DNA of 64,000 nt. It comes from an uncultured Planctomycetota bacterium (lineage in GTDB: Bacteria > Planctomycetota > Planctomycetia > Isosphaerales > Isosphaeraceae). The notes beneath the pieces were generated by a model, which searched no databases, was not told the DNA's origin, and saw nothing but the letters and a program-made list of their open reading frames with translations. The stretch's first letter is position 1, and each line of letters starts with the position of its first letter. Where the stretch lies: the NCBI GenBank assembly GCA_963737655.1, contig CAVTTN010000002.1:1952001-2016000 (forward strand). The letters are read 5' to 3'. This document shows, in pieces, positions 13,089-29,893 of the stretch. The position numbers were made by a program, and so were the translations under genes.

Positions 13089-13161
13089 GCTCCGCCGACC
13101 GACGTTGCGGCAAGGGACGTGGACACTTCGGTACGGAACCCAACCAGATCACGGCGGGACC

Positions 13162-16100
13162 ATGTTCGCGAAAATCCTCTACAGGCCGGCGTTGGCGATC
13201 GTCATCTCGGTGATCATCCTGTTCCTGGGGGGGCTGGCGATCAAGACGTTGCCGGTCTCCCAGTTCCCCGCGGTCGCGCCGCCGAGCGTCGTGGTCACGG
13301 TGGCCTATCCCGGCGCCAGCGCCAACGTCCTGGTGGACTCGGTGCTGGTCATCCTGGAGCAGTCCATCAACGGCGTGCAGGACATGCGCTACATGGCCTC
13401 CGCCGCCACCAGCGCCGGCGAGGCGACGATCCTGATCGTCTTCGAGCCGGGGACCGACCCGAACGTGGCGGTCCTGAACGTCAACAACCGCATCCAGATG
13501 GTCAAGAACCGCCTCCCGCCGCTGGTGGAGCGGGAGGGCATCGTCGTCATGCAGATGATGACGAGCATGCTGATGTACGTGAACGTGTTCAGCGACCAGG
13601 AGGGCGTCGACCAGAACTTCCTGTACAATTACGCCTACGTGAACATCCTGCCCGAGATCAAGCGGGTGCGGGGCGTCGGCATGGCCACGATCCTCGGCAA
13701 CCGCCAGTACGCCATGAGGGTCTGGCTCGACCTGGACCGGATGCGGGCCTACAACGTCTCCTCCGACGACATCATGGAGGCGATCTCCAAGCAGAGCATG
13801 ATCGGCTCGCCCGGGCGGCTCGGCCAGGCGACGGGGAAGACGTCGCAGACGATCGAGTACGTGCTGACCTGGGTGGGGCGTTACAACAAGCCGGAGCAAT
13901 ATGAACGGATCGTCCTGAAGGCGAATCCCGATGGCGAGATCCTCCGGCTCAAGGACGTCGCCAAGGTCGAGATGAGCGCCTCGTACTACAACCTCTACTC
14001 GGACATCGACGGCCTCCCCTCGGCGGCCATCGTGCTCAAGCAGACCCCGGGCTCCAACGCCTCCACGGTCATCGAGGAGGTCAAGGAGAAGCTGACGGAG
14101 ATGAAGAAGGAGAAGTTCCCGCCGGGGATGGACTTCGCCGTGACCTACGACGTCTCCTCGTTCCTCGAGGCCTCCATCGAGAAGGTGCTCCACACCCTGA
14201 TCGAGGCCTTCGTGCTGGTGGCGCTGGTGGTCTTCCTGTTCCTCGGCGACTGGCGATCCACGCTGATCCCCACCCTGGCGGTCCCGGTCTCGCTGATCGG
14301 CACCTTCTTCTTCATGCAAGTGATGGGGCTGTCGATCAACCTCATCACGCTTTTCGCGCTGGTGCTGGCCATCGGCGTCGTCGTCGACGACGCGATCGTC
14401 GTGGTCGAGGCCGTGCACGCCAAGATGGCCGAGAAGCACCTGTCGCCCTATCGCGCGACGATGGAGGTCATGAACGAGATCAGCGGGGCGATCATCGCGA
14501 TCACCATGGTGATGACGGCGGTGTTCATCCCGGTCACCTTCATGACCGGGCCGGTCGGCGTCTTCTACCGCCAGTTCGGCATCACGATGGCCACGTCGAT
14601 CGTCCTCTCCGGCGTCGTCGCCCTGACGCTCACCCCGGTCCTCTGCGCCATGCTCCTCAAGCCCCACGGCCACAAGGCGCGGGGGCCGCTGGCGATCCTC
14701 CTCAGCGGGATCTTCCTGCCGGTGACCCTCGTGCTCCGCCTGTTCGATCGCGGGGTCAACAAGGTCACCAACGGCTACGCCGGCATCCTGGGCCGGATCG
14801 TCACGCTCCGGCTGATCACGATGCTCATCATCGGCGGCTTCGCCTATGGCATCTTCCTGGTCAACATGAAGCTCCCCTCGGGCTTCGTCCCCCTGGAGGA
14901 CCAGGGCATGATCTACGGGGTCCTCCAGACGCCCCCGGGCTCCACGCTGGAGTACACCAACGCCAAGGCCCACGAGCTCCAGGCGATCGCCAAGAAGATC
15001 GAGGGCGTCAAGTCCGTCTCCTCGCTCGCCGGTTACGAGGTGCTGACCGAGGGCCGAGGCTCCAACGCCGGGACCTGCCTGATCAACCTGAAGCCCTGGG
15101 CCGAGCGCAAGATGACCTCGAAGCAGATCATCGAGGAACTCCAGAAGCAGGGCCAGTCGATCTCCAACGCGAAGCTCGAGTTCTTCGAGCCGCCGGCGGT
15201 CCCCGGCTTCGGCGCGGCCGGAGGCTTCTCCACCCGCGTCCTCGACAAGACCAACACCAACGACTACAAGCGGCTCGGCGAAGTGACGGACAAATTCATG
15301 GCCGCCCTGAAGAAACGCAAGGAAATCAAGGGCCTGTTCACCTTCTTCGCCGCCAACTATCCCCAGTATGAGATCGTCATCGACAACGACGTGGCCATGC
15401 AGAAGGGGGTCTCCATCGCCGACGCCATGGACAACCTCTCCATCGTCGTCGGCAGCACCTGGGAGCAGGGCTTCGTCCGCTTCAACCAGTTCTGGAAGGT
15501 CTTCGTCCAGGCCGAGCCGAAGTTCCGACGCTACCCCGCGGACCTGCAGAACATGTTCGTCAAGAACGACCACGGCGAGATGGTCCCCTACTCCTCCTTC
15601 ATGTCGATCCGCAAGCAGCAGGGCCTCAACGAGATCAACCGCTACAACCTCTACGCCTCCGCCGCCATCCAGGGGGCACCGGCCCCCGGCTACAGCACCG
15701 GCCAGGCCATCAAGGCGATCGAGGAGGTCGCCAAGGAGACGCTGCCCCCGGGATTCGGCGTCGGCTGGGAGGGCCTCTCCTACGACGAGGCGAACAAGGG
15801 GAACCTGGCGGTCTACATCCTCCTGGTCGTCGTCATCTTCGTCTACCTCGTGCTCGTCGGCCAGTACGAGAGCTTCCTCCTCCCCCTGGCGGTCATCTTC
15901 TCCCTGCCCATCGGCCTGTTCGGGACGTTCTGGCTCCTGAAAGCCATGGGCCTGGCCAACGACGTCTACGCCCAGATCGGCCTGATCATGCTCGTCGGAC
16001 TGCTCGGCAAGAACGCGATCCTGATCGTGGAATTCGCCGTGCAGCGGCGGGCCGAGGGCCTGAGCATCAAGGAGGCCGCCATCGAAGGAGGAAAACTCCG

Positions 16101-16425
16101 ATTCCGGCCGATCCTCATGACCTCCTTCGCCTTCATCGCCGGCCTGCTCCCGCTGGTCTACGCCACCGGCCCCGGCGCGATCGGCAACCGCACCATCGGC
16201 ACCGCCGCGGTCGGCGGGATGCTCGTGGGCACCCTGGTCGGCGTCCTGGTCATCCCCGGCCTCTACTACGTCTTCGCGAAGATCTCCGACGGTCGCTACC
16301 TACTCAAGGACGAGACCGATGAAACGCTCTCAGAGTCCCTGACGACCCACGGGTCGATCGCGCCCGACCCGCATTCCAGCCCATCGCACTCGTTCCTCGC
16401 CCCGGAAGGCAAGGACTTGCACTAG
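13162..16425 (+). CDS. RND efflux permease (HAE1/AcrB family)
   Basis: LPVSQFP, AIGVVVDDAIVVVE, GLLGKNAILIVEFA, RFRPILMTS. Confidence 0.95.
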   Translation: MFAKILYRPALAIVISVIILFLGGLAIKTLPVSQFPAVAPPSVVVTVAYPGASANVLVDSVLVILEQSINGVQDMRYMASAATSAGEATILIVFEPGTDPNVAVLNVNNRIQMVKNRLPPLVEREGIVVMQMMTSMLMYVNVFSDQEGVDQNFLYNYAYVNILPEIKRVRGVGMATILGNRQYAMRVWLDLDRMRAYNVSSDDIMEAISKQSMIGSPGRLGQATGKTSQTIEYVLTWVGRYNKPEQYERIVLKANPDGEILRLKDVAKVEMSASYYNLYSDIDGLPSAAIVLKQTPGSNASTVIEEVKEKLTEMKKEKFPPGMDFAVTYDVSSFLEASIEKVLHTLIEAFVLVALVVFLFLGDWRSTLIPTLAVPVSLIGTFFFMQVMGLSINLITLFALVLAIGVVVDDAIVVVEAVHAKMAEKHLSPYRATMEVMNEISGAIIAITMVMTAVFIPVTFMTGPVGVFYRQFGITMATSIVLSGVVALTLTPVLCAMLLKPHGHKARGPLAILLSGIFLPVTLVLRLFDRGVNKVTNGYAGILGRIVTLRLITMLIIGGFAYGIFLVNMKLPSGFVPLEDQGMIYGVLQTPPGSTLEYTNAKAHELQAIAKKIEGVKSVSSLAGYEVLTEGRGSNAGTCLINLKPWAERKMTSKQIIEELQKQGQSISNAKLEFFEPPAVPGFGAAGGFSTRVLDKTNTNDYKRLGEVTDKFMAALKKRKEIKGLFTFFAANYPQYEIVIDNDVAMQKGVSIADAMDNLSIVVGSTWEQGFVRFNQFWKVFVQAEPKFRRYPADLQNMFVKNDHGEMVPYSSFMSIRKQQGLNEINRYNLYASAAIQGAPAPGYSTGQAIKAIEEVAKETLPPGFGVGWEGLSYDEANKGNLAVYILLVVVIFVYLVLVGQYESFLLPLAVIFSLPIGLFGTFWLLKAMGLANDVYAQIGLIMLVGLLGKNAILIVEFAVQRRAEGLSIKEAAIEGGKLRFRPILMTSFAFIAGLLPLVYATGPGAIGNRTIGTAAVGGMLVGTLVGVLVIPGLYYVFAKISDGRYLLKDETDETLSESLTTHGSIAPDPHSSPSHSFLAPEGKDLH

Positions 16426-17565: not shown

Positions 17566-17617
17566 GATTATGCATCCGAAACGACGTGATAAATCACGTC
17601 GTTTCGGATGCATAATC
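17566..17617. repeat. Perfect 25-bp-arm palindrome just upstream of the array start
   Basis: gattatgcatccgaaacgacgtgat-aa-atcacgtcgtttcggatgcataatc. Confidence 0.9.
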
Positions 17618-17650
17618 CCGCAAATTCGGAGATTCTGCGTCACTTTCGAT

Positions 17651-17668
17651 GTCTACTTCATGTTAGGC
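17651..17668 (+). other. Putative attI-like site (first GTTRRRY of the array)
   Basis: gtctacttcatGTTAGGC. This first GTTAGGC has no attC body before it and begins a cassette also seen after attC sites at 19536 and 20325. Confidence 0.55.
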
Positions 17669-17992
17669 GGCTCAGGAGTCGAAGCCTTCGGTCGTGCTCG
17701 TCGTCGGCCTCGCCGGTCGCGCCTCGGCTCGACGACGCCATCGGTCGGGCCCCTGGAGTCGGCCTCGGCGGTGGTGCGCGTCGTCGCCCTCGCCGGCCGC
17801 GCCCCGAGGTCGGGCCCGTCGGCCGGCGCCCCCCTTGCCAACGCCGTCGGTCCGTGCCAGGATCGTCGGTGTCGGCGCGTGGGGCGTCGCCGGGGCGCCG
17901 CCTAACCCGGCGCTGCAGCGGACCCGGCCCGCGGTCGACGATCACTCTCCTCTCAATCTCGCCGGGCGCGGGCCGGTCCGCTGAGCTTTGTC
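17662..17992 (+). repeat. Apparently gene-less cassette, copy 1 of 3
   Basis: 331 bp, near-identical to 19536-19866 and 20325-20655. Confidence 0.85.
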
Positions 17993-17999
17993 GTTAGGC
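17900..17999 (+). repeat. attC site
   Basis: GCCTAAC...GTTAGGC with L boxes. Confidence 0.9.
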
Positions 18000-18147
18000 G
18001 TCGCGCCCTCGACACGGTTGGTTTGGCTCGTCGTCGAAGTCGCTGGGAGTGCCCCTGCTGTCAAAGTCTGTGGGTTGAGCTCCGGCTTCGCCGTCGCGAT
18101 GTTCGGTCATCGTCTCCAAAGGTCATCGTCGTCGCGGTCGGCCGCCT

Positions 18148-18527
18148 CTTCGTGAACTCTTTGGCTGGGAACGGCCATCGACGCGCGACACTACCCCAAC
18201 CCCAGGCTTTGTGGCCGGGCAGCGGCGAGGTCCGGGTAGCAAACCGACGGATTCAAGAGCGGCGGACGAGGCGCGGGCCGAGAGGGGAGTCGGTTACGCT
18301 TGCAGTCTCTTCGACGGGAACATCCCCGCGAGTCGGCTCGCGGGGCGTCGCCAATGACCGGATCACGACCTCTCGGGCCAGGCTAACCTACGGGCAGGGA
18401 GCACCAAGGTGGAGACGGCCGGGAGGCCCGCGCCACACTCAGGCTACGCCGCGCCGGGTCGGCGGGCAAGTCGTCCCCGACCCCCGTTCACGCCCCGTCG
18501 GGAGCGGACGAAGGCCGCAGGATGGTT
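18148..18527 (-). mobile_element. 380-bp non-autonomous IS110/IS1111-derived element, copy a (type 1)
   Basis: cttcgtgaactct...gcaggatggtt inserted in GCCT^AAC; homologous to the IS110 upstream non-coding region. Confidence 0.9.
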
Positions 18528-18623
18528 AACCTCGCGCTGCAGCGGACCCGTCCCGCGGTTGACGATTTTTCTGGTGTCCAGCCCGCTGGCCGCGGGTCGG
18601 TCCGCTGAGCTTGGTCGTTAGGC
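18528..18623 (+). repeat. attC site, R'' interrupted by element a
   Basis: gcct(18144-47)|aacctcgcgctgcagcggacc...gttaggc. Confidence 0.88.
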
Positions 18624-18648
18624 GTATTAGGTCGATCGGAGGCTCTGG

Positions 18649-19059
18649 ATGCGCAGTAGAGTCCGCTATGTCAGTGGTTTGCTATCGCTGTCCGTGCTGA
18701 TCTTTACCTCGTGCAGACCGGAGCGACCGGCGGGCAGCGAGGCGGACGCGTGGCCATCCGACCAAGAGATCCTCGCCTACCTCGATGGCAAGACGATTTT
18801 CGAGCCCACGCCTGCCTCATCGGAGAAGGGAGGTAGTGTACCCCCGAAATCCTTCTTGCTGAAGGCAGGCAACATTTCCTCCTTGGAAGTGAAGAAGTCG
18901 GGGGTTGCTGTCTCGGGCGAGCCTTGGACGACGCCGATCCATTTCATCCTCGACGAGGGGGGGCGTAAATATGCCGTTGATGCCAGCGTCGATCACCGGA
19001 AAGTCGATAATAAACGGGCCTTCTTCGGGCTCAAGGCCGAGCGCATCGCTGAGCAGTGA
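18649..19059 (+). CDS. Cassette ORF, predicted lipoprotein
   Basis: GGAGG RBS, lipobox LIFTSC, fills the cassette. Confidence 0.75.
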   Translation: MRSRVRYVSGLLSLSVLIFTSCRPERPAGSEADAWPSDQEILAYLDGKTIFEPTPASSEKGGSVPPKSFLLKAGNISSLEVKKSGVAVSGEPWTTPIHFILDEGGRKYAVDASVDHRKVDNKRAFFGLKAERIAEQ

Positions 19060-19064
19060 CGCCT

Positions 19065-19444
19065 CTTCGTGAACTCTTTGGCTGGGAACGGCCATCGACG
19101 CGCGACACTACCCCAACCCCAGGCTTTGTGGCCGGGCAGCGGCGAGGTCCGGGTAGCAAACCGACGGATTCAAGAGCGGCGGACGAGGCGCGGGCCGAGA
19201 GGGGAGTCGGTTACGCTTGCAGTCTCTTCGACGGGAACATCCCCGCGAGTCGGCTCGCGGGGCGTCGCCAATGACCGGATCACGACCTCTCGGGCCAGGC
19301 TAACCTACGGGCAGGGAGCACCAAGGTGGAGACGGCCGGGAGGCCCGCGCCACACTCAGGCTACGCCGCGCCGGGTCGGCGGGCAAGTCGTCCCCGACCC
19401 CCGTTCACGCCCCGTCGGGAGCGGACGAAGGCCGCAGGATGGTT
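19065..19444 (-). mobile_element. 380-bp element, copy b (type 1)
   Basis: Same sequence and insertion point as copy a. Confidence 0.9.
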
Positions 19445-19542
19445 AACCTCGCGCTGCAGCGGACCCCGGCCACGGGCCGCGCTCCCCTCTTCCCTCAAGC
19501 TCACTGGTCCGTGGCCGGGTCCGCTGAGCTTTGGCGTTAGGC
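19445..19542 (+). repeat. attC site, interrupted by element b
   Basis: aacctcgcgctgcagcgg...gttaggc. Confidence 0.88.
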
Positions 19543-19866
19543 GGCTCAGGAGTCGAAGCCTTCGGTCGTGCTCGTCGTCGGCCTCGCCGGTCGCGCCTCG
19601 GCTCGACGACGCCATCGGTCGGGCCCCTGGAGTCGGCCTCGGCGGTGGTGCGCGTCGTCGCCCTCGCCGGCCGCGCCCCCGAGGTCGGGCCCGTCGGCCG
19701 GCGCCCCCCTTGCCAACGCCGTCGGTCCGTGCCAGGATCGTCGGTGTCGGCGCGTGGGGCGTCGCCGGGCGCCGCCTAACCCGGCGCTGCAGCGGACCCG
19801 GCCCGCGGTCGACGATCACTCTCCTCTCAATCTCGCCGGGCGCGGGCCGGTCCGCTGAGCTTTGTC
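19536..19866 (+). repeat. Gene-less cassette, copy 2 (includes most of attC 19774-19873)
   Basis: Repeat of 17662-17992. Confidence 0.85.
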
Positions 19867-19873
19867 GTTAGGC
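19774..19873 (+). repeat. attC site
   Basis: Identical to attC 17900-17999. Confidence 0.9.
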
Positions 19874-19890
19874 GGCGGGAGACTCCCGCG

Positions 19891-20211
19891 ATGGATTGGC
19901 TCGAACCGTGGTGCGATGTCGCCGACCTCGGCCCCGACTTCGCGGCTACATTCGAGCGGGTTCTGGCACGCGAGGTCGCGCCGGGCCATCCCCTCCACAG
20001 CATCCCGGTCGCGGCAGTCGGCAAGCGCGACGGCACCGACGACGTGCTCTTTCGGCTGCTCGACGGCTCGGAGCGTGTCGCCGCCGTGCACCTGACCTGG
20101 ACTCGCTCCCCTCCCGAGCGGCCACCCTGGCCGGCAACCGAACTGTTCGCCGACTTCGAGGCGTTCGCCCGGCACCAGATGCGGCCCGACCATGAGGAAT
20201 TCGTGACGTAG
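19891..20211 (+). CDS. Cassette ORF, hypothetical protein
   Basis: RBS then ATG just after the attC; stop just before the next attC. Confidence 0.75.
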   Translation: MDWLEPWCDVADLGPDFAATFERVLAREVAPGHPLHSIPVAAVGKRDGTDDVLFRLLDGSERVAAVHLTWTRSPPERPPWPATELFADFEAFARHQMRPDHEEFVT

Positions 20212-20231
20212 CGGCGGGCACAAGAGACGCC

Positions 20232-20331
20232 GCCTAACCCGGCGCTGCAGCGGACCCGGCCGCCGCGGTCGGTTTCTGGTAACATCAAGGTCACTGGTCG
20301 GCGGCCGGTCCGCTGAGCTTGGTCGTTAGGC
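20232..20331 (+). repeat. attC site
   Basis: GCCTAAC...GTTAGGC; loop contains TGGTAACAT. Confidence 0.9.
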
Positions 20332-20655
20332 GGCTCAGGAGTCGAAGCCTTCGGTCGTGCTCGTCGTCGGCCTCGCCGGTCGCGCCTCGGCTCGACGACG
20401 CCATCGGTCGGGCCCCTGGAGTCGGCCTCGGCGGTGGTGCGCGTCGTCGCCCTCGCCGGCCGCGCCCCCGAGGTCGGGCCCGTCGGCCGGCGCCCCCTTG
20501 CCAACGCCGTCGGTCCGTGCCAGGATCGTCGGTGTCGGCGCGTGGGGCGTCGCCGGGGCGCCGCCTAACCCGGCGCTGCAGCGGACCCGGCCCGCGGTCG
20601 ACGATCACTCTCCTCTCAATCTCGCCGGGCGCGGGCCGGTCCGCTGAGCTTTGTC
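20325..20655 (+). repeat. Gene-less cassette, copy 3
   Basis: Repeat of 17662-17992. Confidence 0.85.
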
Positions 20656-20662
20656 GTTAGGC
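20563..20662 (+). repeat. attC site
   Basis: Identical to attC 17900-17999. Confidence 0.9.
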
Positions 20663-20680
20663 GGCTCGGAGGCAACCGCA

Positions 20681-21091
20681 ATGGCCGAGCCTTTCGACCG
20701 CATCGCCGCGCTGGGCGAGTTGCCCCCGACGCTCGCGGCACGCCTGCGGTTCCTCCCCGAGACCGATCGCTCCGTCATCGGCACCATCCGATGCGGCGTT
20801 CTGTTCGTCATGGCCTTCTGGAGCGGCCCCGCCCGGCTGGCCTTCGCCGAACTCAAGCGGGTGCTCGCGGCCGAGGACATCGCCGGCCGCTTAGAGTTGG
20901 TCGTCGTCGATACCGATGGCTGCCCCGACCTCCAGGATCAGCCCGAGTTCACCGGCAAGCTGCACGGCGCCGGCGAGGCCGCTTGGGTTAATCAGGGCGT
21001 CATTGTCTGCACGTCGGGCCTGGGCTATCATCCCGAGTGCTTCGGGCCGAATACGCGGCGCCTCCTGGGCGAATGCGCCGCCTCCCCGTGA
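20681..21091 (+). CDS. Cassette ORF, possible degenerate thioredoxin-like fold
   Basis: GGAGG RBS; AFWSGPA at a WCGPC-like position, later LVVVDTD; stop codon supplied by the IS end. Confidence 0.65.
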   Translation: MAEPFDRIAALGELPPTLAARLRFLPETDRSVIGTIRCGVLFVMAFWSGPARLAFAELKRVLAAEDIAGRLELVVVDTDGCPDLQDQPEFTGKLHGAGEAAWVNQGVIVCTSGLGYHPECFGPNTRRLLGECAASP

Positions 21092-21243
21092 ACTCTTCGC
21101 GCCGGCGGTTCGGCATCGGTTGATACTATGTGGGCATGATCATCGATCGGCCCGCATCCCCCCCGGCCCCCGCGACGACGGGGACGGCCCGATCCGGCTC
21201 GGCGGGGCTTGCGGTCGGGCGCCCCGCCTCCGACCCGTCGCCC

Positions 21244-22596
21244 TCACGACGGCGGCGACGGCGGCGACTTCGCCACCAGCTCGTAGCCCAGCGACCTCGC
21301 CTTGCGCCGCAGCGACCGCTCCTGCTTCGCGCGCACCTCGGCCTCGTACTCCGCCAGCGACCTCGACACGTACTCCTCGCCGTGCCTGAGCATCCGGTAC
21401 ACCAGCCGCGACAGCTTGTGCGCCGTCGCCGTGATCGCCCCCCGGCCGCCGATCCGGCCCTTGATCCGCCGGTAGAACTGGCCCGTCGCCGTCGCCGTCC
21501 GGCCCGCCGCCTGCGCCGCCATCCGCAGCGCCTGACCCACCCGGTTCTTGCCCTTGCGGGGCGTGCGACGCCGCTCGGTCTTGTTGCTCCGGTCGGTCCG
21601 CGGGCAGAGGCCCAGCCAGCTGGCGAAGTGCTTCTCGCTCGGGAACCGCCCCACGTCGCCGCCGAGCTCGGCCAGGATCACCGTCGCCGTCGTCGCGTCG
21701 ATCCCCTCGATGGCCGTCAGGTCCACGCCGATCGCCCGGGCCAGCTTGGCCGGGGCGTCGAACCGCACGTCGTTGGCCTTGCGGCCGCGCTTGCGGGGCC
21801 TCGCCGCGATCGGCCGGCCTTCGGAGCGGTCGGGCAGGCGGTCCAGCTCCTCGGCGATCCGGGCGTCGCACTCGTCGACCTGGCGGTGGAGGTAGTGGTA
21901 CAGGTCGGACGCCTGCCTCAGGGCGAACAGGTGCTCGGGCCGCCAGGTGCCCTCCAGGGCCCGGGCGATCTCCGCCTCGTCCCGGGCGCACCGCTCGTGC
22001 CGCAGCGCGGCCAGCTTCGTGGCGTCCCGCTCGCCGGCGAGGATCGCGGCGATGATCGCCGTGCCGGTGACGCCCGTGATGCTGCTGACGACCTCGGTCA
22101 GCTTCACATTCATCTGCTCCAAAGCCTTCTGCATGTGCTGGACGTGGTGCGAGGCGTACCGCACGAGCATCTGCCGCTGCCGCCAGTAGCCGCGCAGGGC
22201 CAGGACGGCCCCGGGCGGGCGGAAGGACGGGCGGAGCAGGCCGCACGAGTGGAGGCGCTGGAGCCACTGGCAGTCGAGCCGGTCGGTCTTGGGCCGGGCG
22301 CCGCAGTGGCTGGCCTGGCTCGGCTCGATGAGGAAGACCTCGAAGCCGCGCGATTCGAGCAGCTCGAACAGGGGGATCCAGTAGACGCCGGTGGACTCCA
22401 GGACCACCGAGGTGACGCCCTCGGCCCGGAACCAATCGGCCAGGGCGTGGAGGTCGGCCGAGCAGGCGCCGAAGGTGCGGACCCGTCCGGGCCCGACGCA
22501 GGCGACGTGGTTGTCGGAGTGGACGTCGACGGCGGCGGCGTGGGGGTGGACGACCGGCAGGGACGCGTCGGGATCGGGGGGCGTGCGGCGACTCAT
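21244..22596 (-). CDS. IS110 family transposase/recombinase
   Basis: RuvC-like DEDD residues AVDVH, LESTG, KTDRLD; C-terminal FASWLGLCP...S..RKG motif. Confidence 0.93.
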   Translation of the reverse strand: MSRRTPPDPDASLPVVHPHAAAVDVHSDNHVACVGPGRVRTFGACSADLHALADWFRAEGVTSVVLESTGVYWIPLFELLESRGFEVFLIEPSQASHCGARPKTDRLDCQWLQRLHSCGLLRPSFRPPGAVLALRGYWRQRQMLVRYASHHVQHMQKALEQMNVKLTEVVSSITGVTGTAIIAAILAGERDATKLAALRHERCARDEAEIARALEGTWRPEHLFALRQASDLYHYLHRQVDECDARIAEELDRLPDRSEGRPIAARPRKRGRKANDVRFDAPAKLARAIGVDLTAIEGIDATTATVILAELGGDVGRFPSEKHFASWLGLCPRTDRSNKTERRRTPRKGKNRVGQALRMAAQAAGRTATATGQFYRRIKGRIGGRGAITATAHKLSRLVYRMLRHGEEYVSRSLAEYEAEVRAKQERSLRRKARSLGYELVAKSPPSPPS

Positions 22597-22629
22597 GGCG
22601 AGGGCTCCGGCGGGTGGGGGGCCAAGCCG

Positions 22630-22850
22630 TCGCGGGCCGAGAGGGGGTCCGGGGACGAGGTAGTCTCCCCGACGGGAACGTCGCGGGGCCGTGTTGACAC
22701 GGCGCCGCGGGTCACCAATGATGGGGCCACGGCCTCTCGGGCCAAGCTAACCTGCGGGCGGCGAGCACCAGGGAGATGACGGCCGGGAGGCCCGCGGCGG
22801 CGACGCCGATCGTACCGCGCCCCGGTTCACGTCCGTCGGGGAGCGGTCGC
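22630..22850 (-). ncRNA. Putative bridge/seek RNA of the IS110 element
   Basis: Non-coding region 5' of the transposase with stems (ccgagagg/cctctcgg, gccgtgt/acacggc), a target match ctaacct (22747-53) and an own-end match ctccccg (22665-71). Boundaries approximate. Confidence 0.65.
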
Positions 22851-22867
22851 AGGCCGCGCGGAGAGTT

Positions 22868-22965
22868 AACCTCGCGCTGCAGCGGACCCCGGCCACGGGC
22901 CGCGCTTTCTCTTCTCTCGATGCTCGGTGGTCCGTGGCCGTGTCCGCTGAGCTTTGTCGTTAGGT
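22868..22965 (+). repeat. attC site, interrupted by the IS110 element
   Basis: aacctcgcgctgcagcgg...gttaggt. Confidence 0.88.
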
Positions 22966-22980
22966 GGCTCGGAGCTGTCA

Positions 22981-23367
22981 ATGCTCGTTGACTCATGCAT
23001 TCCGGTCATACCCAGCGCCGATCTGGAGAGGAGCCTGCGCTTCTGGGTGGATGGGCTTGGTCTGTCCATGGATCGTGCCATGCGGCACGACGGTCGCCTC
23101 GTCGGTTGTATGGTGCATAACGAGCGGCTGTATTTTTGGCTCAATCAACGAGCCGGTCCCCCGACCGCGTCGGAGAATTACGAGGGCATACGCCTCTACT
23201 GGACGCCAGGCAACATCAAGGCCATTAGGGAGCGTCTCCTGCGACTCGGTTACGCGGCTTCCGAGATTGAGGATCGTGAATATGGACAGGCCGAGTTCGT
23301 CGTCAAGGATGATGACGGGTACTCCCATTGCTTCGGAGTCGCTACAACAAGAGCGGCTAGCCTATGA
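22981..23367 (+). CDS. Cassette ORF, VOC/glyoxalase/bleomycin-resistance family
   Basis: IPVIPSADLERSLRFWVDGLGL...EDREYGQAEFVVKDDDG. Confidence 0.85.
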   Translation: MLVDSCIPVIPSADLERSLRFWVDGLGLSMDRAMRHDGRLVGCMVHNERLYFWLNQRAGPPTASENYEGIRLYWTPGNIKAIRERLLRLGYAASEIEDREYGQAEFVVKDDDGYSHCFGVATTRAASL

Positions 23368-23380
23368 CCGCAAGGGTGCC

Positions 23381-23480
23381 GCCTAACCCGGCGCTGCAGC
23401 GGACCCCGCACCGCCGCGGCGCCTGTTGTCTTATCATTGCTCGCTCGGCGGTGCGGGTCCGCTGAGCTTTTGCGTTAGGC
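23381..23480 (+). repeat. attC site
   Basis: GCCTAAC...GTTAGGC. Confidence 0.9.
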
Positions 23481-23497
23481 GGCGGAGAGATTCCCCG

Positions 23498-23845
23498 TTG
23501 GCGATCGACAACCCAAACGTCATCGACCTAATCGGCACCGACCGGACGACCGGCGAGGCCGTGCTCACCATCAGCGATCACCTCGAATGGGACGACCGCA
23601 ACGAGCATCTGCTGATCTTGCAAGAGAAAATCAACCGCTACATCGGTTTCATCGAGTCTGGCGAACTGCTGGAAAACTACGCGGGTGCGGCGGGCCGACT
23701 GATCCGCGTCGAGGTCGTTTGCAAGTATCCGCCGAGTGAAGTCGGCGAGCGATTCCTGAACCTCGCCAGCGAAACGTTCGAGAAGGCCGGTTGGTCCCTC
23801 ACTTGGCGTTGGTGGCCGAGCAAGCAGCTCGACGCCTCTTCGTGA
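23498..23845 (+). CDS. Cassette ORF, DUF6572-like protein
   Basis: TTG start after GGAGAG; VIDLIG...LTISDHLEW...HLLILQEKINRY..FIESGEL. Confidence 0.75.
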   Translation: MAIDNPNVIDLIGTDRTTGEAVLTISDHLEWDDRNEHLLILQEKINRYIGFIESGELLENYAGAAGRLIRVEVVCKYPPSEVGERFLNLASETFEKAGWSLTWRWWPSKQLDASS

Positions 23846-24217
23846 ACTCTTTGGCTGGGAACGGCCATCGACGCGCGACACTACCCCAACCCCAGGCTTT
23901 GTGGCCGGGCAGCGGCGAGGTCCGGGTAGCAAACCGACGGATTCAAGAGCGGCGGACGAGGCGCGGGCCGAGAGGGGAGTCGGTTACGCTTGCAGTCTCT
24001 TCGACGGGAACATCCCCGCGAGTCGGCTCGCGGGGCGTCGCCGATGACCGGATCACGACCTCTCGGGCCAGGCTAACCTACGGGCATGGAGCACCGAGGT
24101 GGATCCGGCCACCGACCCGCGCCACGAACCGGGCTACGCCGCGCCGGGTCGGTGGGCAAGTCGGCCCCGGCCCCCGTTCACGCCCCCTCGGGAGCGGACG
24201 AAGGCCGCAGGATGGTT
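23838..24217 (-). mobile_element. 380-bp element, copy c (type 1/type 2 chimera)
   Basis: Left part matches copy a, right part matches copy f. Confidence 0.9.
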
Positions 24218-24313
24218 AACCTCGCGCTGCGGCGGACCCGGCCCGCCGCGGTGCTTTCCTGTGCTATCATCATTTCCTCGGCGGTGCGGGTCCGCTGAGT
24301 TTTGTCGTCAGGG
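24218..24313 (+). repeat. attC site, interrupted; R' degenerate (GTCAGGG)
   Basis: aacctcgcgctgcggcggacc...ggtccgctgagt...gtcaggg. Confidence 0.8.
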
Positions 24314-24329
24314 GGATTGATCGTTTACC

Positions 24330-24601
24330 GTGACCAGCAGCCGTAAGATGTCTCAGCCCGAGTTCGATGAGTGGGCCCGCTCGCGCCGACTTGGCCCTTG
24401 GCGTCACGTCCTCGTTCGGGGCGTGCTCTCGAAGGGCCTACCAATCGGCGCCGGCTGGTTGCTCGGTCATTGGCTCGCGGGTACGCTGTCCTGGAGTTTT
24501 GCGATCTGCCTGCTCCTCATCATGATCGTTGCCGGTGCCGTCGATGGGGTTAGTCGATGGCGAGGAGGGCTCCCAATCGGCTCGGCGCGAGCACGCGGCC
24601 T
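24330..24601 (+). CDS. Cassette ORF, small two-helix membrane protein; the frame runs on into element d
   Basis: Two hydrophobic stretches; the true C-terminus is uncertain. Confidence 0.55.
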
Positions 24602-24981
24602 CTTCGTGAACTCTTTGGCTGGGAACGGCCATCGACGCGCGACACTACCCCAACCCCAGGCTTTGTGGCCGGGCAGCGGCGAGGTCCGGGTAGCAAACCG
24701 ACGGATTCAAGAGCGGCGGACGAGGCGCGGGCCGAGAGGGGAGTCGGTTACGCTTGCAGTCTCTTCGACGGGAACATCCCCGCGAGTCGGCTCGCGGGGC
24801 GTCGCCAATGACCGGATCACGACCTCTCGGGCCAGGCTAACCTACGGGCAGGGAGCACCAAGGTGGAGACGGCCGGGAGGCCCGCGCCACACTCAGGCTA
24901 CGCCGCGCCGGGTCGGCGGGCAAGTCGTCCCCGACCCCCGTTCACGCCCCGTCGGGAGCGGACGAAGGCCGCAGGATGGTT
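24602..24981 (-). mobile_element. 380-bp element, copy d (type 1)
   Basis: Same sequence and insertion point as copy a. Confidence 0.9.
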
Positions 24982-25077
24982 AACCTCGCGCTGCAGCGGA
25001 CCCCGCACCGCCGCGGCGATTCTTGTGTTATCATCGCGTTCTCGGCGGTGCGGGTCCGCTGAGCTTTGGCGTTAGGC
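24982..25077 (+). repeat. attC site, interrupted by element d
   Basis: aacctcgcgctgcagcgg...gttaggc. Confidence 0.88.
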
Positions 25078-25105
25078 GGCTCGGCGAAGATGCCTCGGGA
25101 CACCC

Positions 25106-25501
25106 GTGACGTTCGACCCCGACCGAATCATGACCCTCTCGACCATGCAGTTCCGACGTTTCGGAATCGCGTGCTGCTATCGGTTGGGGTGCGACCGCAA
25201 AGACAAGCGTCTCGCGAAGGCGCTCAAGAGACTGGAGCAATCGCTGGGGCCGCCGGCCGACGAGAGCATGCGTCGTGACGCGCTCAACGCCGCCAACTCC
25301 GCTTGCCGAGACCTCTCCGCAAGCAGCGGCGTGATACAGGTCGTTGCCCGCACCCTTGTTTGTGCCTGCTGGGACGGTCCCAATGAGAATCTGATTGGGA
25401 ATTTCGAAGCGGCGCTTGAACAAGGAGAGCACTTGAGCAGGTCCGAGATCAAGGACATTGAAAGCGAGATCTTTCGGGCTATCCTGGGCGCCTCTTCGTG
25501 A
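25106..25501 (+). CDS. Cassette ORF, hypothetical protein
   Basis: Fills the cassette; stop supplied by element e. Confidence 0.7.
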   Translation: MTFDPDRIMTLSTMQFRRFGIACCYRLGCDRKDKRLAKALKRLEQSLGPPADESMRRDALNAANSACRDLSASSGVIQVVARTLVCACWDGPNENLIGNFEAALEQGEHLSRSEIKDIESEIFRAILGASS

Positions 25502-25873
25502 ACTCTTTGGCTGGGAACGGCCATCGACGCGCGACACTACCCCAACCCCAGGCTTTGTGGCCGGGCAGCGACGAAGTCCGGGTAGCAAACCGACGGATTC
25601 AAGAGCGGCGGACGAGGCGCGGGCCGAGAGGGGAGTCGGTTACGCTTGCAGTCTCTTCGGCGGGAACATCCCCGCGAGTCGGCTCGCGGGGCGTCGCCAA
25701 TGACCGGATCACGACCTCTCGGGCCAGGCTAACCTACGGGCAGGGAGCACCAAGGTGGAGACGGCCGGGAGGCCCGCGCCACACTCAGGCTACGCCGCGC
25801 CGGGTCGGCGGGCAAGTCGTCCCCGACCCCCGTTCACGCCCCGTCGGGAGCGGACGAAGGCCGCAGGATGGTT
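25494..25873 (-). mobile_element. 380-bp element, copy e (type 1, a few SNPs), followed by a truncated attC
   Basis: Followed by aacctcgcgct and then unrelated sequence. Confidence 0.9.
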
Positions 25874-25909
25874 AACCTCGCGCTCGACACCCAAGCCGGA
25901 GCATGTTGC

Positions 25910-26701
25910 ATGCGCTCATTAAGATTTGTCGTTATTACACTGTCGTTGACGGTTCGGTTCGCACCGCTCTATGCCCAGACGCCTGGAAAAAAACCGCCGA
26001 GCCGGGTTGTTGGCAGCGTGTATGGGAAGGCCGTCACCGCGGACCAGGTTGGCCTGACCTTGCCGATCGACAACACCAAGAAATTCGATGCACGAGATAC
26101 ACCCGCGTGGGAACAGATGGAGCGGGTCGCGGTGGCGTTCGGTAGCCCGGTCATGGAGCGGTTGGTCGCGCAGCGGAAGCTCGACGCCACGGCCGACGAG
26201 ATGGCCGCGTACAGGAGGGTCAACCTGATATTGAAAGGGCAGATGCTACGCGAGACGGAAGCTCGTTTGACGAAGGTCAAGGAGGAACTCGCGTCGCCCC
26301 ACCTGTCGGATGGAAGGAAAGCGGAACTGGAGAAAGAACGAGAGACGTTCGAACAGAGCCTCCCGGCGCAGCGCGAATCCGCCAGGCGTAATGACGACGA
26401 TGATGATGCTTTCGGTCGCGGGCTCATCCTCTCCTGGAAGGTCGAGCGGGAGCTGTACCGGACCTACGGCGGTCGCTTGATCTGGCAGCAATTCGGTATC
26501 GAGGCGCTCGACGCCCGCCGCCTGCTGTTCGAGGAAGCGGAGAAGAAGGGTGACCTGAAGTTCGACGATCCGGGGGTGCGGCGTCTATTTTATTACTACT
26601 CCAACATGCCTCACACTTTCGTCGGTGAGAAGGAACCAAGATTGCTGGAAGAGAAGCCTTGGTTCCTGAAGGATGGGGACGAACCGCTCCCCGAGAAGTG
26701 A
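25910..26701 (+). CDS. Cassette ORF, secreted helical protein
   Basis: GGAG RBS; signal-peptide-like MRSLRFVVITLSLTVRFAPLYA; coiled coil. Confidence 0.75.
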   Translation: MRSLRFVVITLSLTVRFAPLYAQTPGKKPPSRVVGSVYGKAVTADQVGLTLPIDNTKKFDARDTPAWEQMERVAVAFGSPVMERLVAQRKLDATADEMAAYRRVNLILKGQMLRETEARLTKVKEELASPHLSDGRKAELEKERETFEQSLPAQRESARRNDDDDDAFGRGLILSWKVERELYRTYGGRLIWQQFGIEALDARRLLFEEAEKKGDLKFDDPGVRRLFYYYSNMPHTFVGEKEPRLLEEKPWFLKDGDEPLPEK

Positions 26702-26764
26702 GTGATGGGGCCGCGGCCGGAATCGAGGACATGGCGGATTTTGGCCCTAACCCGCTATGTCATG

Positions 26765-26865
26765 GCCTGACCTCGCGCTGCAGCGGACCCCGCACCGCCG
26801 CGGCGCCTTCTGGTAGAATCAACGCTGCTCGGGCGGTGCGGGTCCGCTGAGCTTCGGCGTGAGGC
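26765..26865 (+). repeat. attC site (GCCTGAC...GTGAGGC variant)
   Basis: Conserved L boxes and stem. Confidence 0.8.
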
Positions 26866-26885
26866 GGCGGAGGGAGGCCGATCCC

Positions 26886-27332
26886 ATGGAAGTCGTGAAA
26901 TCCAACCGCTACGGGCCGCTGGAGCCTGCTCGACTCGAAGCGTTCGAATCCCTGATCGGGTCGCGTTTCCCGGGAGACTTCCGTCAGTTCCTCCTCGACC
27001 ATAATGGCGGTCGACCCGCCTTCGATCACCTCCTCGATGCCGAGCGGGACGACTCGTTGGCGTGCCTGAACAGCACTTACGGGCTGCACGACGGACCGGA
27101 GTATTGCCGCATGGACTCGACCTTCGACACGCTCCGTGATGTGCTGCCGGCCGGCCTCATCTCCTTCGGCGACGATCCGGGAGGGAACCTCTTCTGCATC
27201 GGGGTCGCCGGGGAGTATCGAGGCCGGGTTTATTTGTGGGACCACGAGACGGCGGAACCCAAGCTGCTGGGAGAATCGTTCGAGGAGTTCCTGTCGCGTT
27301 TGGGCCCCGATCCCTGGGACGCCTCTTCGTGA
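26886..27332 (+). CDS. Cassette ORF, SMI1/KNR4 (SUKH) family immunity-type protein
   Basis: LEAFESLIGSRFPGDFRQFLLDHNGG, ISFGDDPGGNLFC, GRVYLWDHE. Confidence 0.88.
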   Translation: MEVVKSNRYGPLEPARLEAFESLIGSRFPGDFRQFLLDHNGGRPAFDHLLDAERDDSLACLNSTYGLHDGPEYCRMDSTFDTLRDVLPAGLISFGDDPGGNLFCIGVAGEYRGRVYLWDHETAEPKLLGESFEEFLSRLGPDPWDASS

Positions 27333-27704
27333 ACTCTTCTCCATCGAACGGCCGTCGATGCGCGACATTCCCCCGACCCCTGGCCGTGTGGCCGGGCAGC
27401 GACGAGGTCCGGGTGGCAATCCGACGGATTCGGGATCGGCGATCGAGGCGCGGGCCGAGAGGGGAATCGGTTACGTTCGGAGTCTCTTCGACGGGGACAT
27501 CCCCGCGAGTCGCCGCGCGGGGCGTCGCCGATGACCGGATCACGACCTCTCGGGCCAGGCTAACCTACGGGCATGGAGCACCGAGGTGGATCCGGCCACC
27601 GACCCGCGCCACGAACCGGGCTACGCCGCGCCGAGTCGGTGGGCAAGTCGGCCCCGGCCCCCGTTCACGCCCCCTCGGGAGCGGACGAAGGCCGCAGGAT
27701 GGTT
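27325..27704 (-). mobile_element. 380-bp element, copy f (diverged type 2)
   Basis: Same length, ends and guide-like segments; many internal substitutions. Confidence 0.9.
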
Positions 27705-27801
27705 AACCTCGCGCTGCGGCGGACCCCGCACTGCCGCTACACTTTCTGCTACGATCAACGTCGCTCGGGCGGTGCGAGGCCGCTGAGCTTGGGCGTTAGG
27801 C
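27705..27801 (+). repeat. attC site, interrupted by element f
   Basis: aacctcgcgctgcggcgg...gttaggc. Confidence 0.85.
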
Positions 27802-27883
27802 GGCGTCGCGGTCGGCCAGAATGTGACGAACTCGCGGAGCGTGGAACGCAGGCCGCGCGGAAACCGATCGTGAGGTTAGCGAC

Positions 27884-28399
27884 ATGAAGCTGAATGTTTC
27901 CAGCCTCGCCTTCGCCCGACACCGAGACGAAGTGCCCGCGCGGTGGCTCCTCGATATCCTCTGGCTCGTCCTCGCCTCCGGCGAGGACACGAATGGCGAG
28001 TATTCCGTCATCGAGCAGTTCATGCCCGTCGGGTCCGGCCCGCCGCCGCACGGGCATCCGTTCGAGGACGAGATGTTCTACGTCCTGGCCGGGGAGATGA
28101 CCGTCATCGTCGGCGGGCAGGAGATCGTCTTGAAGCCCGGCAGCCTGGGCCACGTCCCGCGCAACGTCGTCCACGAATTCAAGGTGACCGGCACCGACGT
28201 GTGCCATTGCCTGAACTACTACACCCCCGCCGGGTTCGAGCAGTCGGTCCTCGGGTGTTCGCGGCCCGCGGAACGGCGCGAGTTGCCCCCGCCCGGGCTG
28301 GACCCGCTTGACTCTCCGCAGGTGATGCAATTCTTCAACAACTACTGGGTCGCCGGGGCAACGCTCCCCTGGGCCCAGCAGAAGTGGTCGCCCGGTTGA
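27884..28399 (+). CDS. Cassette ORF, cupin domain protein
   Basis: GPPPHGHPFEDEMFYVLAGE...VPRNVVHEF. Confidence 0.88.
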   Translation: MKLNVSSLAFARHRDEVPARWLLDILWLVLASGEDTNGEYSVIEQFMPVGSGPPPHGHPFEDEMFYVLAGEMTVIVGGQEIVLKPGSLGHVPRNVVHEFKVTGTDVCHCLNYYTPAGFEQSVLGCSRPAERRELPPPGLDPLDSPQVMQFFNNYWVAGATLPWAQQKWSPG

Positions 28400-28491
28400 G
28401 CGCCAAGCGGCACGCGCCCATGCCGGTTGGGCCGGAAAACCGCATCCCGGAGTGCCGGGGCCTCGACGCCTTCCCGCTGGCGGAGGGCGGC

Positions 28492-28592
28492 GCCGAAACT
28501 GGCGCGGGAGCGGACCCGGCCGCCGCGATTGGTTTCTGGTAATATTCTAAGTCGCAGGCCGGCGGCCGGTCCGCGGAGCTTCGGCGTTAGGC
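28492..28592 (+). repeat. attC site (R'' degenerate, GCCGAAA)
   Basis: gcggacccggcc...ggccggtccgcggagc...gttaggc. Confidence 0.78.
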
Positions 28593-28607
28593 GGCGAGGC
28601 GCGACCG

Positions 28608-29057
28608 ATGGCGAAGGGACTGCCGGGGACGGTCGCCGTCAACCACGACGATTACCACGCCGAATACGTCGGGCGAACCAAGGACGGCGCGCAATTCTTC
28701 CTCACGACGCCCTTCGTGCCGGGGGTCGGAGACCAGCCGGGCCGGGAGTTCATCGCGCTCTACCTGTTCGACAAGGCTGGCCAACTCCAGGCGGCCACGA
28801 TCGACGACCTGGGGCCTCGCGAGACGATGGATCTGGGGGCGAGGATGGCCCGCCGAGACGAGTTGCTCGCCTCGCTGGGTGAGGTCAGCTATCAGCGAAT
28901 CAAAGTCGCCCCGTTTCGGATCGAGAGGTTCGGGGTTGAGTTCGGGTTCATCCCGCAGCCGCCCGAGGAGCCGGGCGAGGACTGGAGCGTCATCGTGATG
29001 CCGGGAGACGTCATGTGCTTCTGGCCGCCTTGGTCCAGCGGCGACTACGATACGTAA
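28608..29057 (+). CDS. Cassette ORF, hypothetical protein
   Basis: RBS GAGG; fills the cassette. Confidence 0.75.
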   Translation: MAKGLPGTVAVNHDDYHAEYVGRTKDGAQFFLTTPFVPGVGDQPGREFIALYLFDKAGQLQAATIDDLGPRETMDLGARMARRDELLASLGEVSYQRIKVAPFRIERFGVEFGFIPQPPEEPGEDWSVIVMPGDVMCFWPPWSSGDYDT

Positions 29058-29066
29058 TGCCGCGAC

Positions 29067-29167
29067 GCCTAACCTGGCGCGGCGTCGGACCCCGCACCGC
29101 CGCGGCGCGTTCTGCTACGATCGAAGGCCGCTCGGGCGGGTGGGTCTGCTGAGCTTTGGCGTTTGGC
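29067..29167 (+). repeat. attC site
   Basis: GCCTAAC...GTTTGGC. Confidence 0.82.
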
Positions 29168-29185
29168 GGCTCGGAGGGTCAGGCG

Positions 29186-29521
29186 TTGGAGGAGGCGTGT
29201 CCCCTCGAAGAAAAGCTGTCCAATGTCGCAGCCGACCTGCTGTCCGAGCGGCGGTTCGAGGCATTCGTCCGCCGCCTGTTCGCGGCCCCTCCCGGCGTGT
29301 GGCAGGGCGTGGCGGCCTGCTGCTCAAGCATGCCGGTGCTGCCGGGCCTCGCCGCCGAGGTCTTCGCCGGCCACGCCGAGTGCTTCGTGGTCACGCATCT
29401 GCCATGGCCCGGCCTTCCCTCCCGCGATCCCTACGCTCTGGTGCTGTTCCTGCACGCCGATATCATGTGGTCCACCACCGCGTTGTACAATCGCGCCGTG
29501 TTCGGGGCCGACTCTTCGTGA
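29186..29521 (+). CDS. Cassette ORF, hypothetical protein
   Basis: TTG start after GGAGG; stop supplied by element g. Confidence 0.6.
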   Translation: MEEACPLEEKLSNVAADLLSERRFEAFVRRLFAAPPGVWQGVAACCSSMPVLPGLAAEVFAGHAECFVVTHLPWPGLPSRDPYALVLFLHADIMWSTTALYNRAVFGADSS

Positions 29522-29893
29522 ACTCTTTGGCTGGGAACGGCCATCGACGCGCGACACTACCCCAACCCCAGGCTTTGTGGCCGGGCAGCGGCGAGGTCCG
29601 GGTAGCAAACCGACGGATTCAAGAGCGGCGGACGAGGCGCGGGCCGAGAGGGGAGTCGGTTACGCTTGCAGTCTCTTCGACGGGAACATCCCCGCGAGTC
29701 GGCTCGCGGGGCGTCGCCAATGACCGGATCACGACCTCTCGGGCCAGGCTAACCTACGGGCAGGGAGCACCAAGGTGGAGACGGCCGGGAGGCCCGCGCC
29801 ACACTCAGGCTACGCCGCGCCGGGTCGGCGGGCAAGTCGTCCCCGACCCCCGTTCACGCCCCGTCGGGAGCGGACGAAGGCCGCAGGATGGTT
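29514..29893 (-). mobile_element. 380-bp element, copy g (type 1)
   Basis: Inserted in GACT^AAC. Confidence 0.9.

Follow-up and report, generated by a model that had tools for sequence, protein, structure and literature searches.

Bridge RNAs and seek RNAs were described in 2024 as parts of autonomous elements. For the insertion sequence (IS) IS621, the original report states that mismatches between the left donor and its guide are poorly tolerated and that the RNA acts in trans (Durrant 2024, PMC11208160), and for ISEc11 a cargo placed between the two ends is described as moving when the transposase and the non-coding region are supplied in trans (PMC11187229). MITEPpu9 of Pseudomonas putida is a gene-less module with IS110-family ends that outnumbers its IS, ISPpu9, and a use of the IS transposase in trans has been proposed for it (PMC12288879). 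Here, we report seven copies of a 380-bp gene-less unit, the mini-element, in a 64,000-nt stretch of DNA (the window throughout; assembly GCA_963737655.1, contig CAVTTN010000002.1, positions 1,952,001 to 2,016,000) from an uncultured planctomycete of the Isosphaeraceae, where they share one insertion position in integron attC sites with a complete IS110-type IS. The mini-elements are, at a probability that we put at roughly 80%, non-autonomous relatives of an RNA-guided IS110-type IS that carry their own RNA and borrow the protein.

A repeat finder located seven copies of 380 bp at the starts listed in Table 1, and the full set of copies, each exactly 380 bp long, given in an earlier note on this DNA was thereby recovered. 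Identity to the copy at 18148 is 100% for four and 99.2%, 95.3% and 87.4% for the others, and the mean column identity across the alignment of the seven is 97%. Their first and last bases are uniform, the left neighbour is ..GCCT and the right neighbour AACCTCGCGCTGC.. on the plus strand, and the sequence to the right of each copy extends for about 100 nt to ..GTTAGGC. Each copy lies four bases within the R'' end of an integron cassette attC, and the flanks of the full IS are identical to those of the 380-bp copies. The earlier note had placed all these insertions, that of the full IS included, at one base of R''; all flanks agree with this, with the qualification that the insertion point is ambiguous by one base, a T being common to both sides on the plus strand. 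No match to the 450-amino-acid (aa) IS protein was found within any copy, as expected of units described as lacking a transposase.

The genome assembly that holds the window (G000; 7.6 Mb, 68.7% G+C; genome coordinates below carry the prefix C2) contains 28 full-length 380-bp copies, 27 of them on one strand. Fifteen are identical, six are one-base variants and the remainder are 87–99.5% identical. The same genome has six intact ISs, each either 1784 or 1802 bp long and all with open recombinase genes, and the excess of mini-elements over the autonomous element that had been pointed out for the window (7:1) therefore stands at 28:6 against intact ISs genome-wide. Read in element sense, all 34 copies (28 and 6) have the arrangement ..GCGC(G/A/C)AGGTT, element, AGGC.., in one orientation relative to attC. 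A search of the genome and its relatives had been predicted to return attC sites only, and all 28 genome copies, as well as the one complete copy of a sister species, do lie in attC. The spread of the mini-element is probably recent, since one and the same sequence is found in 15 copies, and 27 different pairs of 40-nt flanks surround the 28 copies.

Movement as a unit is documented by one pair of filled and empty sites. The cassette and attC of copy 2 recur at C2:6787421-6788000 minus exactly 380 bp; the cassette is identical at 475 of 480 positions, the first part of the attC at 40 of 40 and its remainder at 60 of 60, with the 380 extra bases between the first two of these blocks. As the two members differ by exactly 380 bp, the mini-element is a discrete unit that enters or leaves without duplication or deletion of the target, and an empty allele of the kind anticipated in the earlier note was thus found, once. 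Occupancy follows the sequence of the site. Among attC sites reading NAGGTT in element sense 35 of 44 are occupied, by 27 mini-elements and eight ISs (six intact, two deleted), and nine are empty; among those that do not match the guide (CGGGTT in 13, GAGGTC in five, and four other variants) the count is 0 of 22. These figures cover common-type attC ends that fit the search pattern, which misses the 28th copy (25494), whose attC has no body. The two internally deleted ISs, C2:1680652-1681647 (996 bp) and C2:6791946-6792593 (648 bp), are single-copy, lie in attC and have intact IS-type ends; the longer retains the entire RNA region, whereas of the IS left end the shorter has kept no more than the initial 126 nt.

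Two copies in the window may bear traces of exchange. The first ~130 nt of copy 3 (23838-24217) resemble the copy at 27325 and the remainder is identical to the main type, a mosaic that suggests recombination between mini-element subtypes. Copy 5 (25494-25873) has, in element sense, about 12 nt of attC on its left, and its right flank is that of the copy at C2:1679758-1680137, which has a whole attC; the left flanks of the two differ. The flank of copy 5 looks like the result of a deletion or of an exchange by homologous recombination between mini-element copies.

The full IS has features of the IS110 group, namely both recombinase domains, a long upstream non-coding region and site-specific insertion without target duplication. 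Its protein matches DEDD_Tnp_IS110 (PF01548, E 1.9e-17) and Transposase_20 (PF02371, E 5.9e-18), scores 253 bits against the NCBI model NF033542 'IS110 family RNA-guided transposase' (cut-off 140) and is a distant match to the IS621 recombinase (E 1.5e-10). The non-coding regions measure 271 nt upstream and 160 nt downstream of the recombinase gene, and a 7-bp subterminal repeat, which covaries among homologues, is set back from the left end by 35 nt and from the right end by 3 nt. The left ends of all homologues have a short G+C-rich hairpin ~10-25 nt from the start (for example 22843-22858, minus strand), which is kept with differing sequences in distant homologues and could be a 5' RNA stem or a protein site.

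The colinearity of some 260 bp of the mini-element with the region 5' of the transposase, already remarked upon in the earlier note, is borne out by alignment: positions 1-256 (gene sense) are colinear with IS positions 1-237 at ~75-80% identity and correspond to most of the 271-nt upstream region. Positions 257-365, a filler of ~110 nt, are unrelated to the IS, and the final ~14 nt are shared again. The termini of the two differ in the first eight and the last three bases. The left ends differ (AACCATCC vs AACTCTCC), and the right ends read ..CACGAAG in the mini-element vs ..CACGGGG in the IS, the 11 nt preceding the last three bases being common to both. The view of the mini-element as a reduced IS holds in that two ends and a guide RNA are kept, but it is no deletion form of the resident IS, from which it differs by its 75-80% identity and its termini. 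Being short, non-coding, multi-copy and kin to the ends of an autonomous element, the mini-element resembles MITEs (miniature inverted-repeat transposable elements); it is termed MITE-like here because there is no target-site duplication and its repeats are subterminal only.

A protein-based search of public genomes returned 79 loci with recombinase relatives, 41-84% identical and mostly in Planctomycetota assemblies. In nearly all of these loci the gene is preceded by a stretch that matches a non-coding-region profile, and 87 of 98 profile matches lie upstream of a recombinase gene. From these homologues an alignment of 28 non-redundant cores was made for the RNA fold. RNAalifold, unaided, returned a stem closing a hairpin-capped internal loop, another stem of long range, a pairing between two nearly invariant blocks and a variable hairpin; a long outer stem was added by eye, and the final structure has 38 pairs in six helices. 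In this structure 85.5% of the cells are paired, vs 40.6-51.3% when the partners are slid by one to three columns, and 78 cells show double changes, vs 26-37 after sliding. The covariation score of 0.245 compares with a maximum of 0.119 for slid partners and was reached by none of 500 shuffles. In most sequences some of the pairs are G-U, a feature compatible with the recombinase-gene strand alone. In this model the predicted RNA forms a three-way junction, with a target arm and a donor arm on an outer stem. Folds of single sequences were uninformative (z -0.65 for the element, z -0.67 for the IS non-coding region) and no better than shuffles, and P3, a short helix lying between P2 and the donor loop, had no common register across homologues and was excluded from the pair count. 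Neither the copies nor the non-coding region of the IS matched an Rfam 15 family (E up to 1), and three weak matches lay elsewhere. The spurious microRNA matches arose from an inverted repeat of 24 bp that is perfect and encloses a 4-nt loop (17566-17617; 42% G+C vs 68% in the genome) at the start of the array.

In the target arm, six to seven bases behind an invariant GCCCG vary by element and equal the bases just left of it. Of 37 elements, 25 have their own target 6-mer within the 50-nt segment that should hold the left junction; among representatives whose guides are distinct the figure is 12 of 22, and with foreign target guides as a control it is 5 of 462. A blind comparison of RNA columns with flank and end positions, made on 14 non-redundant elements (the IS of the window was left out, and the right end of two was mis-set), recovered the left-target diagonal, on which 12-14 of the 14 elements agree at five successive positions, and one left-donor position. 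In the donor arm, the bases behind an invariant CCCGT are the last bases of the element's own right end and the next two. In 29 of 41 rows, which comprise nine sequence variants, this donor 6-mer immediately follows the subterminal repeat of the right end and is at the expected distance; the 12 misses are eight loci that end too early, one tandem junction and three that are truncated, decayed or unexplained. On the 5' side of the target loop, 9 nt had by eye resembled the start of the left end; this match was rejected, since permutation reached it in 246 of 5000 trials without relatives and in 1080 of 5000 without conserved ends.

The comparison of the two resident elements is informative about the donor. 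Their target guides are equal except for the first base, and the donor guides read GGGGAG in the IS vs GAAGAG in the mini-element, each matching its own right end, with the result that donor guides and right ends differ by the corresponding two bases. Since both differ from those of the IS alike, the mini-element RNA appears to be set for its own right end. Both guides are invariant in 28 of 28 copies, including two that are 12-13% diverged. They end in AG, and the target reads ..GGTT-AG-GC; as the right junction retains AG and the left junction has AA, the crossover is placed just after the A. In homologues that are more distant, both junctions carry AG. The proposal that the mini-element keeps a guide RNA of its own thus gains a covariation-supported fold and both target and donor segments, the RNA itself being predicted.

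The lineage extends beyond one genome. Full-length matches among 121 genomes of the family were found in G000 and in the sister species G003 only, the latter having one complete copy (378 bp, 83% identical, in attC) and three more that are cut by contig ends. A public contig of 2273 bp (L062) carries an IS at 7-1820 (84% aa identity) followed, head to tail, by a 391-bp mini-type element at 1821-2211 (L062b) with a GAAG-type guide and right end. Such a tandem is understandable because an inserted element leaves the left flank and an A, by which the left junction still resembles the target. Divergence is lower in the RNA core than in the filler in the sister-species copy (12% vs 28%), in L062b (25% vs 39%) and in copy 27325 (11% vs 19%), and the last 14 nt have hardly diverged from those of relatives; the antisense 126-codon open frame of the mini-element is not preserved in L042 or L062b. 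Judged from these comparisons, the mini-element is an old separate lineage and not a fresh deletion of the resident IS. Contig L062 is labelled as belonging to an actinobacterial bin though its relatives are planctomycete, and may be mis-binned. At another locus (L072) two related IS copies (1091-3030 and from 3041) are separated by an 11-nt gap that repeats the left flank of the target, a near-tandem insertion.

No further gene-less lineage was seen among the loci examined. The 11 of 98 non-coding-region matches without an adjacent recombinase gene were checked and comprise five of the mini-element lineage, one decayed, three with the gene further on and two in which a gene was found by protein search. 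A 16-nt pattern searched in metagenomes gave 119 stretches, of which 80 loci were fetched; 0 of 80 fit the non-coding-region profile, and these are chance matches. Two public DNA runs from one study share only attC-like stretches with the query, and the depth over the element is 0.

On this evidence, the mini-element would consist of the left end, in which the bridge-RNA gene is complete, of ~110 nt of filler unrelated to the IS, and of the right end, without a recombinase gene. Its RNA would be read from the minus strand of the window and form a three-way junction with two arms, the second of which would pair with the donor through 7 nt that repeat the right end of the same element, followed by AG. 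If the analogy with IS621 and ISEc11/ISEc21 holds, the recombinase of one of the six intact ISs would bind this RNA, and together they would excise the mini-element as a circle and insert it into another attC at GCCT^AACC, in a single orientation and without duplication. The mini-element would rely on its own RNA and borrow only the protein, because its right end (..CGAAG vs ..CGGGG in the IS) and its donor guide differ alike. The sequence documents the anatomy of the system and the marks of its evolution; we infer transcription of the mini-element RNA, formation of the circle and supply of the recombinase in trans.

Several observations weigh against this scheme. Right-target and right-donor guides were not found, either by a permutation test or as a diagonal in the blind scan of 14 elements, and both guides that were found are on the 3' side of their loops, where IS621 has its bottom-strand guides on the 5' side. 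A consensus scan returned no sigma-70-like promoter and no intrinsic terminator in or beside a copy, with a consensus that may not suit this phylum. The sister species G003, with at least four copies, showed only a 72-aa fragment of the cognate recombinase, in an assembly that is 77% complete and of a kind in which repeats often remain unassembled. Finally, the 996-bp deletion derivative, which has the RNA and both ends, stays single-copy.

Other explanations may be considered for a gene-less element with an RNA gene. The RNA gene could be an inert relic, with the elements being moved by a recombinase loaded with the RNA of the full IS. The common target guide and the 11 nt common to both right ends would allow this, and the IS621 RNA is stated to act in trans (Durrant 2024, PMC11208160). 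It is nevertheless unlikely, as the donor guide and the right end differ from those of the IS by the corresponding two bases, the guides are invariant in 28 copies while up to 13% of other positions have changed, the core is better conserved than the filler in three lineages, and compensatory changes keep the stems in the mini-element rows of the alignment. Transposition could also be denied altogether, the copies being one deleted IS multiplied by segmental duplication or by integron-integrase shuffling of cassettes. Cassettes are indeed duplicated in the host genome and the copies at C2:1673105 and 6786655 are identical in both flanks, but this is very improbable given the flank pairs, 27 of them distinct among 28 copies, the cassette and attC that exist with and without the element, an occupancy that tracks the guide sequence, and elements that are no deletion form of the resident IS; the segmental duplication that would have overturned the earlier note is equally improbable. 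An RNA with mainly another purpose, as a decoy damping the IS, or insertions kept for freezing cassettes, would be in line with the splitting of 35 of 44 eligible attC sites, with the 28:6 excess over the IS and with the small RNA, described as probably regulatory, that MITEPpu9 of ISPpu9 bears (PMC12288879). A donor guide matching the element's own end, however, is needed by a mobilising RNA and not by a decoy, and mobile elements kept for such a purpose are improbable here.

Within the preferred reading, of an element with its own RNA and a borrowed protein, we lean slightly towards a more specific form, in which the mini-elements would be a lineage of RNA-only parasites with a private donor code. 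Right end and donor guide would have changed together, the RNAs of helper and mini-element would not be interchangeable, and only the protein and the attC target would be shared, by an old lineage that outnumbers its helper 28:6 and has filled about four fifths of the readable attC sites. If so, a single recombinase would here, in nature, work with two guide RNAs that are orthogonal within one cell, and filling of about four fifths of the guide-readable attC would immobilise the cassettes concerned.

The surroundings of the elements add some further detail. One cassette occurs in triplicate in the array, each time together with its attC (17644-18005, 19518-19879 and 20307-20668; 74-99% identity), and these attCs are of the CGGGTT type and unoccupied. 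The sole integron integrase gene above the model cut-off (C2:6777135-6778073) adjoins another array, and the array in the window is therefore one without its own integrase; just upstream of it is an AcrB-type resistance-nodulation-division (RND) transporter gene (13105-16425, plus strand; PF00873, E 3.7e-295). Two IS110-family recombinase paralogues, 34-38% identical, are found at C2:4847288-4848490 and C2:287059-287556, within a few kb of arrays with mini-elements.

Table 1. Features of the window, with positions counted from its first base.
Feature	Position	Strand	Remarks
380-bp element, copy 1 (reference)	18148..18527	-	among 15 genome copies with the commonest sequence; flanks GCCT/AACC
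Predicted bridge-RNA core of copy 1 (P1 to P1)	18267..18437	-	element positions 91-261
Putative left-donor guide of copy 1	18305..18313	-	element 215-223; equals own right end (..CGAAG) + AG; identical in all 28 copies
Putative left-target guide of copy 1	18382..18390	-	element 138-146; 7 nt equal attC left flank + AG; identical in all 28 copies
attC body split by copy 1	18528..18625	+	ends GTTAGGCG; first four bases GCCT at 18144-18147; other copies alike
Cassette preceding copy 2	18584..19063	+	475/480 nt identical to empty-attC cassette C2:6787421-6787900
380-bp element, copy 2	19065..19444	-	filled member of filled/empty pair
380-bp element, copy 3	23838..24217	-	95.3% identical; mosaic of two subtypes
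380-bp element, copy 4	24602..24981	-	100%
380-bp element, copy 5	25494..25873	-	99.2%; neighbouring attC body missing past ~12 nt
380-bp element, copy 6	27325..27704	-	87.4%; divergent subtype, both guides unchanged
380-bp element, copy 7	29514..29893	-	100%
Autonomous IS110-type insertion sequence, 1784 bp	21084..22867	-	attC position as for mini-elements
IS recombinase gene, 450 aa	21244..22596	-	PF01548 + PF02371; NF033542; distant IS621 recombinase match
IS 5' non-coding region with predicted bridge RNA	22597..22867	-	core 22620-22809
Unoccupied attC	17903..18002	+	left flank CGGGTT (element sense), not NAGGTT; four further starts: 19777, 20235, 20566, 23384

Compared with IS621 and the IS110-group bridge RNAs, the system described here has a recombinase of the same DEDD/Tnp family, and its RNA gene lies upstream of that for the recombinase, within the left end; the RNA likewise has two predicted arms, matching target and donor, with guides that include the crossover base(s), and insertion is without duplication (PMC11208160, PMC11208158). 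As expected of an IS621-type bridge RNA, a structured RNA is predicted in which target and donor segments covary with the flank and the end. The recombinase of IS621 is 326-328 aa long vs 450 aa here, the two being distantly similar, and unlike IS621 the RNA here would be a three-way junction under a long outer stem, with AG following the left halves where IS621 has CT (PMC11208160, PMC11208158). The bottom-strand guides lie 3' of the loops and not 5' as described for IS621 (PMC11208160). The IS621-type placement, bottom-strand guides 5' and top-strand guides 3' of the loops, was not seen and no top-strand guide was found; because the guides are on the 3' side, mechanistic detail is transferred from IS621 by analogy only. 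The RNA here also occurs without a recombinase gene, unlike that of IS621, and is matched by no Rfam family.

The IS1111-attC group (ISKpn4, ISPst6, ISPa25) is alike in its site-specific insertion at one attC end and in having an RNA from the non-coding region (PMC11187229), and insertion into attC in a single orientation was found here as well. In IS1111-type seekRNA the bottom-strand match lies 3' of the other match, as it does here (PMC11187229). That group has, however, a 330-350-aa transposase with a downstream non-coding region, vs 450 aa and an upstream region here, and 11-13-bp subterminal repeats with 7/3-bp extensions, vs 7 bp at 35/3 nt from the ends (PMC11187229). Since protein length and position of the non-coding region differ, attC targeting looks convergent between the IS1111-attC group and the parent IS. 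The IS110/IS1111 context offered in the earlier note is apt as regards an IS110-type parent, but does not extend to membership in the known IS1111-attC group.

Closest in organization is MITEPpu9, which may stand alone or directly behind its IS, as in L062 (PMC12288879). The small RNA that it carries, Ssr9, is described there as dispensable for transposition and is not a bridge RNA, whereas the cargo here would be the guide RNA, equipped with its own donor guide (PMC12288879). Engineered mini-donors, with ISEc11 ends or the 22-bp donor of IS621, are alike in that ends and RNA suffice when the protein comes from elsewhere (PMC11187229, PMC11208160); these are laboratory constructs, in contrast to the natural lineage here, which numbers 28 copies and extends to a second species. 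A literature search, with subscription journals mostly outside its coverage, found no natural gene-less IS110/IS1111 element with its own guide RNA. The parts are thus known, and what is new in the searchable literature is the combination of a guide RNA as sole cargo, a donor code of its own and a nearly saturated target. A natural element made of two ends and a guide RNA would show that the RNA gene can be a selected unit, and that donor recognition can diverge into orthogonal pairs of RNA and end served by one protein. It would also show that saturation of the target is within reach of such elements (here 35 of 44 readable attC), which bears on the freezing of integron cassette arrays. The system also yields a natural pair of orthogonal donor codes and a candidate bridge-RNA architecture from a little-studied clade of ~450-aa recombinases, with the guides on the other side of the loops.

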